The notes beneath the pieces are model-generated. The model searched no databases and was not told where the DNA came from. It saw only the letters and a list, made by a program, of their open reading frames with translations. From the NCBI GenBank assembly GCA_964187785.1, contig OZ076413.1, positions 37,944,001 to 38,008,000 of the forward strand: a DNA stretch of 64,000 nt, read 5' to 3'. Source of the stretch: Amphiscolops sp. MND2022. Taxonomy: Eukaryota. Every line of letters begins with the position of its first letter. Positions within the stretch are counted from its first letter, which is position 1. Made by a program: the position numbers and the translations under genes. This document shows positions 18,896-22,869 of this stretch, piece by piece.

Positions 18896-20889
18896 AACGA
18901 GAAACCGCGTGAGTACCACAGCACTATGGGCTAGTAAATTGAATTCTGTGGTTTCATACTTGTAATGTTAACTTTACGTTGGCTATTCTAAATTTGCTAG
19001 AGACCACACTTAGTCAGGAGTTTCAAGGCCGGCTGCATAAATTTTGTAGAGACCACACTTAGGAGTTTTCTAGCCGGCTGCATGAAATTTGTACAGGCCT
19101 CACTTAGCCATTAGTACCGGCAATTGTGTGCAAAGTTCGAGCCATATCAGTCAAGTCAAAAAAGTTATAATCAGCGTGACGCTTGTTTGTTGAAATAGCA
19201 ACAGCTGAAGTCACAAAAAACAGTTAATTTGGGGGGAGCCCTTGCATTTCAAATGAGTCATGTTTTCATTACATTTCATTACTGCATTACATTTTTCCCA
19301 ACCCCTGGCTACAACTAATCCAAGTTTAACTAATATAATACGAGCAAGTGTTTTTATACATCATGTAAGTGGGGTAGGAGACGACATGACACTGAATGAG
19401 TTCGGAGGCACTGAATGGCACTGACTGAGTGAAGGTTGCCCGGATCGTTCACACATCAGCTACTCAGTGCACCAAGCTTGAATGCGTTGACTCATGATGG
19501 AGGCCAAAAAACTATTCTTCTGGGGCTTGATTTCTGAAAATTACAATTTCAGAATGGTAATCTTTCAATAAGATGATGATGACTGTGCTACTATCATATG
19601 CTAGAATGAAAGCTTTCAAAAAATGTATAAGTCGTAAGTAAGATGACATCTGGTGACCAGATTTGATTCATGTTGAAATCATTTCTCCAATAAAATTTGG
19701 AAGGAATGTTGAAGTAGACTTGAGATTAAATTTGTCCGAATTACCTGTCTCACGGGGAATGGATTTGAATTCCAATATCCGGATTGACTTGTGCGGGATG
19801 TGCTCGTCGTACTGCCGCTCTCCGGGGATGCTACCGAGGAGGATAGCAGTGGGTGAGGCGCGAGAACGATCAGCTCATCATCCGTGATTGCGCTGACAGG
19901 AATTCTCTCGCCGTCATCGTTTCTCCTCGTCCATTTTGCAGGATAGTATGCTCGGGACAGGTTCAAACAACGGGACAGGTCTGACAGGCATGCTACAGAG
20001 ACATGGTTGTCAAATATGCTGTGGGTGAAAATCTGATTGTCAAAATATGTCCTGGAGAAACGAGCGTAGAGCTGAAAAGTAAAAGATGCGAAATCTCAAT
20101 ATATTTGTCATCTTGAATTCTAAAAATTTTGATCATTAAATACACAATGTACCCGTTACAAAATTGAAGATAACTTGTTCGGAACAACTATTCTCACCAT
20201 TTGCACTTCCTGTTCATTGTAAATGCTATCGATTGCCCTATGCATTGCACGGAAGTCTCTGACCATCATACGGGACTGTGTTGCTCTGTGGAGCAAAATG
20301 GTGAACAGCTCAGGAAGGCCTGGGAACTTGTCATGCGCTGGAAAGGACGACTCATTCTCAATGTACAATCGAATCGAATCGAATCGGAGTGGCCTTCTGC
20401 AAAAAAATTGGACCCTACAGCGATTGAGTTCCTTTTCGTGAGGACGAAGTGCAGGAATTGTGATGGCATCACAAGTATGTCACCAAGTTTGACAGTGATC
20501 ACTGCACACCCGCCCTCCAAACGTTCATGACAAGCAAAAACTGTTGGCCTGTAATAAAACAGAACATTTATTTGTTTGATATCCTAAAACATTGAATACA
20601 ATGAATTTCAGCAATATTAAAATTAAGTCTACTAACTGTGCGTCGGTCTCTGGGCTAGTATATTAGTTGGATAATTGAAAACTTCTCACCCGTTAGTACA
20701 GTGCACATCACGGGCGTTGCCGAGAAATCCTGGTGCCAAGTGGTCTAGCATCCATCGTTCGACACGAGTAGGTAATACGAGGTAGCACAAGGAATGGTTA
20801 TGATCTGTCTCCAATTATCCCATCAACAAAATGATTGATGGATGTTTGCTGAATCATCATCGGGACAGTGTACACTTTCTGTAAAAAAA

Positions 20890-21210
20890 ACATGAATGAG
20901 ATTTATCTCAAACCGATCATGACAGTAAACAAAAAATTGATAACTTGAATGAGATTTATCTCAAACCGGTCATGACAGTAAAAAAAATCAGTTGATAACC
21001 TAAATGAGATTTATCTCAAGCCGATCATGACAGTAAACAAAATGAGTTGATAACATAAATGAGGTTTTTCTCTCAAACCGATCATGACAGTAAACAAAAT
21101 GAGTTGATAACCTAAATGAGATTTATCTCAAACCGATCATGGCAGTAAACACAGTGAGTTGATAACAAAAATGAGGTTTATCTCAAACCGATCATGACAG
21201 TAAACAAGGG
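20890..21210 (-). repeat. ~57-60-bp tandem array filling a JmjC intron
   Basis: About six units of ATGAGATTTATCTCAAACCGATCATGACAGTAAACAAAATGAGTTGATAAC inside intron 20879-21216. Confidence 0.9.
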
Positions 21211-22214
21211 TAGTACCGTCGGTGGCAACTGAATGTCCATTACATTCAGAGGGTAGAAAGGGCTGCTGATGTCATTCCGGAGGAACTCATCCCGCACAGC
21301 GTGAAGGGTCAAATCACGTGTCTAAAATTTAAAGAAGTCATTTTGCTTGACATATCGTAATGATAGGCACCTCACACCCTTGAAGTTAACCATCAATCCG
21401 AAGTTTCACTGTTTCGAGAAAATCACTCATTGAGGGTTTGGTGAGAATTGATGGAAAAACTTTGATCAAATTTACCTGTCCAAGTTTTGCTGACTTGACG
21501 TTGATGGTATGATCAGCATCTTGGAGACTCTGGGGCTGGAGAAGTTCAACCAGTCCATCAAAAAATGGTTTGCTGGATTGAGGCAATTTGATATGCCGAC
21601 ATTGATCAACCCCTTTCTGCCAAACTAAGGGGATACCATTCCTTATCAACTAAGGGACTTTCCTCGCTTGGTCTTTTATGGGGCCATTCCATCTCGTTAT
21701 GGGGAACTTCGGGGAACTTAAAGATACGTCCAAGCAAAATTGGAAATATGCGGGGAGCCAAAAACATCAGGGGCGTGGCATGAAAGTCACTTGGAGCGGG
21801 GAACTCACTTGATGAAGGGGAATCAGATAAGTCATCAACCTGTATAAGTAGAAAATAATACTATGGTAATTGAGTATACTTATGATAGTCTAGTATTTGA
21901 GTATGATACATAGAGAGTTTAAACAGTTGAGTAGAATCACATTGGGTTAAATTGATATTCAATGATACGGACCATTTTGGACAATAAATGATTTTGTGAG
22001 TCAATGATGTAATACAATTACATCAATGATTTGATAGGGCAATAGCTCACTTGTGCCTTGCAGTCCGGATGTTTGGAGAGGTGGATTTGCAGATCGAATG
22101 AATACGAGAAGACCTTGCCACATCCATAGCACTTGTGGTTTTGGCGTCTTTCTCCTCGTGCTGCCTCTGTAAATTACAATCATAGTTAGCACTTCGAATC
22201 ATGGAGTAACAGAT

Positions 22215-22450
22215 TTGATCTGGTGTTCAAAACCCAAATTTGTTTACTGGCATGATTAGATCATTTTATTAAACTGATCTGATGTTCAAAGTTTGAGAAA
22301 AACTGTTTACTGGCATGATCAGAAGAATTTAACGATTTGATCTGATGTTCAAAGCATAGATAATTTTGTTTACTGGCATGATCAAATCAAATTAGCGATT
22401 TGATTTGAGATTAAAAACCTAACAAAATTGTGTTTACTGGCATGAACAAA
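22215..22450 (+). repeat. ~63-bp tandem array in a ZF-JmjC intron
   Basis: Four units containing TTTGATCTGATGTTCAAA...TGTTTACTGGCATGATC inside intron 22167-22458. Confidence 0.85.
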
Positions 22451-22869
22451 TCACTTACTGTACTTGTACATGGTGATCGCTTCTCCTTTTCTTTTGAGTT
22501 CGCGCTGCTTCACACAGTATTTGGTCAACTGATGCTTCTTCATGAACTTGGCCTGCATCAGTACCTGTCCACACTGCTGGCAAGTTCGCTGCCTGAGCTT
22601 CCACTCCTCCCTTGACTCACAGAGGCAGGTGGACTTCTGGTGGCGCGTGACGTTGCTTTTCACTTTGAACGAGTAGTCACAAGTACCTTGTCCGCAGTGA
22701 AAATGCTTGCTCGACGGAGAATATCGAGGTGTGGATGCTGCCGGGGTATAATCGCAAGGGGTTGCTGCTGAGGTAGAAGGGGCGAGAGCATTGTCATTTG
22801 AAGACATGATAACTAAAAAAACATGGGACCATGAAGCCTCTCTCAAAATCTTTTTAAAAAATTAGGAGG

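Follow-up and report, generated by a model that had tools for sequence, protein, structure and literature searches.

Here we describe a gene from Amphiscolops sp. MND2022 in which zinc fingers are joined to a JmjC-type histone demethylase domain (ZF-JmjC), found in a 64,000-nucleotide stretch of contig OZ076413.1 (positions 37,944,001 to 38,008,000; the window, below, means this whole stretch). The gene is the cargo of a DNA transposon, which we call family A. From comparison of this element with related families in the same genome, we think it probable (roughly 60%) that intact copies of ZF-JmjC bind a 19-nt motif dispersed through the element that carries them and there remove repressive histone marks of the mono- or di-methyl type, keeping the element transcribable. 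An expressed copy would make the protein, which would dock, presumably by direct DNA binding, on motifs across all copies of its own family; the docked JmjC domain would then strip repressive me1/me2 marks, with H3K9me1/2 or H3K27me1/2 as the preferred candidates, and the loss of these marks would keep the element open to transcription, to the element's benefit. Broken copies would be expected to arise after insertion.

The ZF-JmjC gene lies on the minus strand at 22807-19679 of the window. GT/AG boundaries were seen at all six of the exons tested, which are 87-93% identical to an open family-A model, and the gene is laid out as follows.

22459..22807, minus strand: exon 1, with C2HC finger 1 (Val-1, Asn+3, Arg+6) and finger 2
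22051..22166, minus strand: exon 2, with finger 3
21476..21839, minus strand: exon 3, N-terminal part of JmjC; a stop at 21652 and two 1-nt deletions
21217..21321, minus strand: exon 4, the NVMD segment (the positions of KDM2A N142 and I144)
20637..20878, minus strand: exon 5, H-x-D and the 2-oxoglutarate Lys; 3 stops and 4 deletions
20198..20548, minus strand: exon 6, distal His, pocket Asn and KF flap; a 5-nt insertion at 20386
19679..20092, minus strand: last exon, frameshifted, weakly conserved against families B and C; the family-B splice acceptor is provisional

A reading of this DNA from its letters alone (the sequence-only reading) had joined three C2H2-like fingers to a JmjC domain through compatible exons. 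The exons and their motifs are borne out, including HQD at 20727-20735, GEK at 20682-20690 (2-oxoglutarate Lys codon 20682-20684) and the distal His (codon 20449-20451, within FLHFV at 20443-20457), all on the minus strand, as is the pocket Asn (codon 20407-20409); an open frame in this copy is not. Against the family-A copy at C2:13.03 Mb, the window copy has 4 in-frame stops (21652, 20800, 20747 and 20665, that at 20747 falling four codons ahead of the HQD His) and 6 frameshifting indels (21773, 21754, 20791, 20681, 20673, 20386), which together rule out an intact gene. The window copy is thus a pseudogene, unable to make protein.

The fingers lie at 22625-22696 (finger 1), 22514-22582 (finger 2) and 22060-22131 (finger 3). 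Their assignment to the C2H2 class had to be corrected, since the fourth ligand of fingers 1 and 2 is Cys, making them C2HC. Finger 3 has a Cys seven residues past its His in families A-D and F-I, and its second His is absent in families B, D, F, G, H and I. With a Cys fourth ligand and long linkers, rather than two His ligands and short linkers, this is no classical C2H2 array; the helix pattern is nonetheless C2H2-like, and the Pfam zf-C2H2 model scores 26.5 bits on finger 3 and 23.8 bits on finger 1 of the window.

Intact paralogues of this gene do exist. When one JmjC exon was searched against the 1.07-Gb genome from which the window comes, 1015 candidates were returned, with all 150 of those scored being matches, many at identical scores, so that the genomic copy count of this exon is at least 150. 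In the young family B, three copies that are ~99% identical give an open model of 509 residues, 8 of the 14 copies examined are in frame and 6 of these 8 keep H-x-D; two tandem family-C copies are likewise open. The sequence-only reading had allowed that finger and JmjC exons might belong to separate transcripts, or that the gene might be the single-copy host KDM2/7 orthologue. Since finger 3 and the N-terminal part of JmjC share one exon in families C, D and H, and a finger and the whole JmjC fall within one 621-codon frame in family J, the fusion is not due to chance and the two parts belong to one gene. The host orthologue was likewise rejected: ZF-JmjC is carried by transposons in many copies, while two exons of a distinct host KDM2/7 gene, which is more KDM2/7-like, lie at C4:53.02-53.03 Mb.

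ZF-JmjC is under purifying selection. In comparisons of the deep families, nonsynonymous differences per site (pN) were 0.27-0.35 against synonymous differences (pS) of 0.62-0.93, with synonymous sites near saturation; between families G and I the ratio of the corresponding rates (dN/dS) was 0.18 for the finger exon and 0.28 for JmjC, and JmjC values where measurable ranged over 0.08-0.28. It could be argued that a host gene was captured and now merely rides along as passive cargo, or that its enzyme is now a non-catalytic scaffold, given that the window copy and all 5 modelled family-A copies are broken, together with the 6 frameshifted copies of family B. We hold this to be very improbable, in view of the purifying selection and the retention of catalytic residues across families A, B and C, whose JmjC domains are just 53-56% identical. 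The absence of any intact copy among the five of family A does weigh against our preferred reading, as does the presence of JmjC in families K and M, in which no complete finger and no clear motif were found.

The 19-nt motif is arranged as follows in the window.

16822..42359, no strand: span of all 25 motif sites, at up to 2 mismatches
20915..21208, minus strand: intron 4 array of six TTTGYTTACTGKCATGATC motif copies in tandem
22239..22447, plus strand: intron 1 array of four motif copies in tandem

All 25 sites lie inside the element, with none in 37 kb of flank, and none falls in coding DNA (0/25 in the window and 0/20 in family B), even though ~30% of the DNA is coding. Every family that has the motif has its own 19-nt version, in the same register; its sites are spread over the length of the element, and many of those within introns form tandem arrays. 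In each of the seven elements tested the motif occurred in 5-13 independent contexts, compared with a maximum of 2-3 across 20 shuffles, and cross-matches between families were confined to related ones (D with H; E, F, G and I among themselves). The A/B motif pattern had 0 matches in three family-C copies, in which a de novo search then recovered family C's own variant; in unbiased searches the motif ranked second in G, behind long dispersed repeats, and third in F, where the top cluster was mixed. The family-A pattern has 537 exact genomic matches, part of them within one satellite-like array (C2:2,054,871-2,078,499) that is built from this motif with ~61-bp periodicity. Families E, F, G and I (L085-L092, L069-L076, L077-L084 and L097-L100) also contain longer dispersed internal repeats of ~170-200 bp. 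The target named by the sequence-only reading, TGRCATGRTCA, was mis-defined: it merges the 19-nt motif with an unrelated 31-34-nt tandem unit, and has 0 matches in two family-B elements. That unit (core TGACATGGTCA) occurs at 22857-23069, 33203-33407 and 37258-37476 of the window, upstream of the ZF-JmjC gene and flanking the transposase on both sides; in family C, the ZF-JmjC gene is preceded by a tandem array of another kind.

The proposal that the fingers read the element's own motif is carried by finger 1, which changes together with one triplet of the motif. In the zinc-finger code, as set out in PMC12264921, Arg, Lys or His pairs with G, Asn with A, and small hydrophobic residues lie at thymine methyls. 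Finger 1 has Arg+6 in all families, Asn at +3 except for His in E and F, and Lys or Arg at -1 except for Val in family A. In family A, accordingly, Val/Asn/Arg faces GAT at motif positions 16-18; Lys/Asn/Arg in B, C, D and H and Arg/Asn/Arg in G, I and O go with GAG; and Arg/His/Arg in E and F goes with GGG. The triplet predicted by the code was found in all ten families with a readable finger 1 and motif. With the motif core chosen independently of the triplet, it was present at 16/18 sites in the window, 18/19 in B, 8/11 in C, 5/5 in D, 9/11 in E, 7/12 in F, 11/11 in H, 7/8 in I and 4/6 in G. The 5' part of the motif is common to G/I and E/F, and the difference falls at the base predicted by Asn versus His. 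The rule for position -1 was set down before families D-I were examined, and the finger residues of G and I were recorded before their motif was found.

Several points weigh against this reading of the covariation. Only two independent finger changes lie behind it (Asn to His, and Lys/Arg to Val); the link between Val and T is the weak part of the code, and the match of His with G was recognised post hoc. A prior prediction that CTG-N3-TGA-N-C would stay constant was not borne out by D, E, F, G, H, I or O, the triplet rule alone holding. Fingers 2 and 3 give no clean match to the code, and how three long-linker fingers would read 19 bases is not obvious. In families J and N the fingers are of another make and the motifs unrelated; these motifs contain GCG, the triplet predicted for the N finger, to which we give little weight.

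Another protein, be it the transposase, a protein of unassigned function from the element or a host factor, might instead bind the motif, with the finger-1 match a product of common descent and chance. The small number of finger changes and the joint inheritance of gene and motif are compatible with this, and the first and last motif sites lie ~400-600 bp from the element ends, resembling subterminal transposase sites. We nevertheless judge it improbable, because a single host factor would not explain motifs that differ family by family inside one genome, and because families D and H keep a homologous motif in elements that have neither the DDE transposase nor the conserved unassigned open reading frames (ORFs) of the DDE families.

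The D and H elements are of a second kind. They are 10-12 kb long, end in AAT repeats and encode a SUV4-20-like SET protein and a recombinase-like ORF. Their only protein-coding similarity to families A, B, C and E is ZF-JmjC, other matches being non-coding repeats. Since D and H keep gene and motif without a DDE transposase, the motif travels with the fingers and not with the transposase. An unrooted JmjC tree joins D and H to E, F, G and I with support 0.995, a placement that implies movement of the cassette from one element type to another. In the recombinase-like ORF of the D/H/J carriers, RSG, HKTG, SxRKFW, AQTAH and a His/Tyr end are kept in all three aligned rows and, judged by eye, may represent the R-K-H-R-H-Y catalytic set of tyrosine recombinases (Crypton-like elements), although Pfam, PHROGs and PDB searches gave no recombinase match for this ORF. 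SUV4-20-like SET domains adjoin or are fused to it in the ZF-JmjC elements L119:3409-6325, L062/L063 and L123-L124. As judged from their coding content, then, ZF-JmjC is carried by transposons of two unrelated kinds, DDE and recombinase-like. The wider proposal, on which we are evenly divided, is that a portable cassette of zinc-finger reader, JmjC eraser and re-seeded cognate motif has moved between DDE and recombinase-type transposons, and that at least 10 finger-motif pairs, each erasing silencing only on its own copies, would constitute a natural panel of programmable demethylases.

For the JmjC domain, the KDM2/KDM7 type assigned by the sequence-only reading agrees with the nearest sequence and fold matches: KDM2A, PHF8 and KDM7A were the only significant matches of the family-B exons among PDB sequences, and a Foldseek search with the family-J model (P0203) gave ceKDM7A/PHF8 at E ~1e-23 and KDM2A at 4e-20, with other JmjC classes at 2e-11 or weaker. 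The assignment is not matched by phylogeny, in that a FastTree analysis of 122 rows (4 element proteins together with 118 relatives drawn from the best 150) and 260 columns, whose long branches make long-branch attraction possible, places the element JmjCs outside both the CXXC-bearing and the PHD-bearing clades, among unnamed JmjC-only proteins. By these comparisons the element JmjC is KDM2/7-type yet nested in neither KDM2 nor KDM7. CXXC, PHD, F-box and LRR domains, which a KDM2 orthologue would be expected to have, were not seen in the modelled exons, and unlike KDM7 proteins the element protein has C2HC fingers at its N-terminus in place of PHD. The divergent JmjC-only proteins of other assemblies that group with the element JmjCs (P0052, P0057, P0064, P0074, P0077 and others) may also be transposon-borne. 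P0049 and P0053 match the window's genome at only 55-60%, a divergence that points to related families in other assemblies. A word-index search with the JmjC exon gave 1 longer protein among 140 candidates, and zf-C2H2 (Pfam, E 0.001) was found in none of the 69 scanned of the 150 best JmjC relatives, many of which are fragments, so that the fusion may occur elsewhere.

The iron triad H-x-D...H and the 2-oxoglutarate Lys are kept throughout families A-I, with H-R-D in family H. Residues equivalent to KDM2A Y199, L201, I144, D214, F215, N298, H212, H284 and K229, the last of which we take to be the 2-oxoglutarate Lys, are all retained, including in open copies of the young family B, and the me1/me2 pocket (Y199, L201, I144, D214, F215, N298) is complete; the K323-F324 flap is kept as well. 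The roles of these KDM2A residues other than K229, including those of the methyl-lysine pocket, follow PMC4197961 (see also PMC4197959). KDM2A S145 is required for activity on H3K36. In the element JmjC, S145 is replaced by Asp and the mixed loop also differs, so several marks are candidate substrates, a point that counts against our preferred reading. In short, the element proteins share with KDM2A/B and KDM7 (PHF8, KDM7A, PHF2) the best sequence and fold match, the iron triad, the 2-oxoglutarate Lys and the pocket, and differ in their C2HC fingers, their long branch outside both clades and Asp at S145.

The fingers might still target the motif while the enzyme, together with the SET protein, acts on a non-silencing mark (H4K20me1 or H3K36me1/2) to serve excision, replication timing or break repair. 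In each carrier type JmjC comes with a SET gene that resembles an H4K20 methyltransferase, SETD8 (E 0.0015) in one and SUV4-20 (E 4e-14) in the other; the transposase has a BRCT domain; PHF8 is described as an H4K20me1 demethylase; and the KDM2A flap is kept. Both SET classes point to H4K20, and a writer-eraser pair on that residue fits equally well, which tells against the removal of silencing marks. We nonetheless consider a non-silencing mark unlikely, since the SET class differs between the carriers whereas ZF-JmjC is the gene common to both, and since the motifs span the whole element, introns included, like the VANC targets described in PMC5735166, and are not restricted to its ends.

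The removal of silencing marks, which we prefer, would place ZF-JmjC beside other element-encoded anti-silencing factors. In Arabidopsis each VANC protein acts on the VANDAL family that encodes it, by way of tandem motifs in non-coding DNA (PMC5735166). As in that system, an element-encoded protein is accompanied by family-specific short motifs in non-coding DNA and introns, the motif is amplified in tandem, and protein and target change together; the 19-nt motif, being family-specific, non-coding and tandem-amplified, has the character of a VANC target. VANC differs in being a DUF-domain protein of a plant Mutator element that causes DNA hypomethylation (same source), whereas the present system, known from sequence alone, fuses a zinc-finger reader to JmjC in an intron-rich, animal-type genome and occurs on two element types. 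TET/JBP transposons of fungi and the SET-carrying HarbingerS and MuDR elements (PMC12730594) likewise show chromatin-enzyme cargo moving between transposon lineages, although the cargo here is a histone JmjC equipped with fingers of its own; 'JmjC' occurs 0 times in the main text of that paper. Two kinds of system are already known: transposons carrying chromatin enzymes (TET/JBP, SET) and anti-silencing guided by a motif (VANC). Our literature searches, covering titles, the beginnings of abstracts and passages of PMC9406493 and PMC12730594, returned no transposon-borne JmjC, nor any account of a finger-JmjC on a transposon whose motif co-varies with it; they did not extend to Repbase, Dfam, subscription journals or supplements, which could list such elements by name.

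Zinc fingers also target a JmjC demethylase to a DNA motif in plant REF6/ELF6. REF6 and ELF6 belong to the host, carry their C2H2 fingers at the C-terminus and have a JmjC domain of a different class.

The boundaries of the family-A element, which were sharp, were defined by comparing copies together with their flanks, and its remaining features are these.

16263..42935, no strand: whole family-A DNA transposon, 26,673 bp, from BLAST of flanked copies, with its ends and the 2-bp target-site duplication (TSD) AC
16263..16280, plus strand: terminal inverted repeat (CATTACGATACA...), 16/18 nt matching the opposite end
42918..42935, minus strand: terminal inverted repeat at the other end, partner of 16263..16280
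23516..24759, minus strand: two conserved ORFs, one of them 23516-24205
24193..30189, no strand: 3.0-kb tandem duplication inside the element, 99.2% identity
31124..31948, plus strand: ORF conserved in families A, B and C
32377..33203, plus strand: SET-domain gene, nearest to SETD8/KMT5A (tested on the family-B copy)
33434..37070, plus strand: decayed RAG1/Transib-like transposase, with GDSPF at 34885, EGTEKSHH at 35792 and a C-terminal BRCT domain

The window element is ~84-85% identical to two other family-A copies and has CATT termini with its AC duplication. CA..TG termini with a 2-bp TSD, as in the CMCT clade (Transib, RAG1/RAGL, Chapaev, EnSpm, Mirage, Plavaka), whose TSDs are of 2-5 bp, were found in 13 of the 14 full-length copies having both ends and in 2 of 4 short derivatives, and one terminal pattern has 934 exact genomic matches against 0 for a control pattern. 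The family-C copies L050-L052 and L046-L047 contain their own terminal repeat several more times in the interior, in both orientations. A viral origin was rejected, there being no viral family match among 9 ORFs scanned.

The transposase resembles those of the CMCT clade in having a RAG-like helical domain. For P0017, an intron-free homologue, RAG1 clusters appear among the ESM Atlas neighbours, and the modelled helical domain (residues 399-623) aligns best with BbRAGL (Z 11.3), HzTransib (9.5) and RAG1 (8.9). The RNase-H part of a transposase-homologue model has a predicted local distance difference test score (pLDDT) under 50, its D, D and E being assigned by eye, and a Foldseek search with the transposase model matched the BRCT domain alone, no match reaching E 0.001. 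A 9-row transposase alignment does not show conservation of C(2)C and H(3-4)H, the zinc motifs of the clade as defined in PMC12730594, and the elements further differ in their C-terminal BRCT, their length of 17-48 kb and their several cargo genes. RAG1/Transib-like transposases that likewise end in a BRCT domain and lack the usual zinc motifs are L015:5342-7108, P0015, P0017 and P0018; other assemblies hold relatives that are 30-33% identical. Neither the transposase core nor the three other conserved ORFs could be named by sequence searches of Pfam, PHROGs and PDB. For the ORF at 23516-24205 (L014:6997-7740, minus strand), homologues occur in families B, C, E, F, K and O; it is kept in 7 DDE families, down to ~24% identity, with no family match.

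Around the element the window contains two decayed BEL/Pao-type retrotransposons (DUF1759) at 7400-13500 (minus strand) and 43100-49700 (plus strand), between which the terminal-inverted-repeat element lies, a decayed Maverick/Polinton-like fragment at 1-3200 on the minus strand with a packaging-ATPase-like ORF at 715-1308 (Pox_A32, E 0.027), fragments resembling more retroelements at 54200-56900 and 61700-64000, and a 200-base N gap near 56.5 kb.

The means by which animal transposons counter chromatin silencing are largely open, a sequence-specific precedent being plant VANC. Here reader, enzyme and target are all visible in the DNA, and ten natural finger-motif pairs make the idea directly testable. 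If it is true, one genome would hold histone erasers and writers of its own in hundreds of copies, and the cassette would cross transposon classes.

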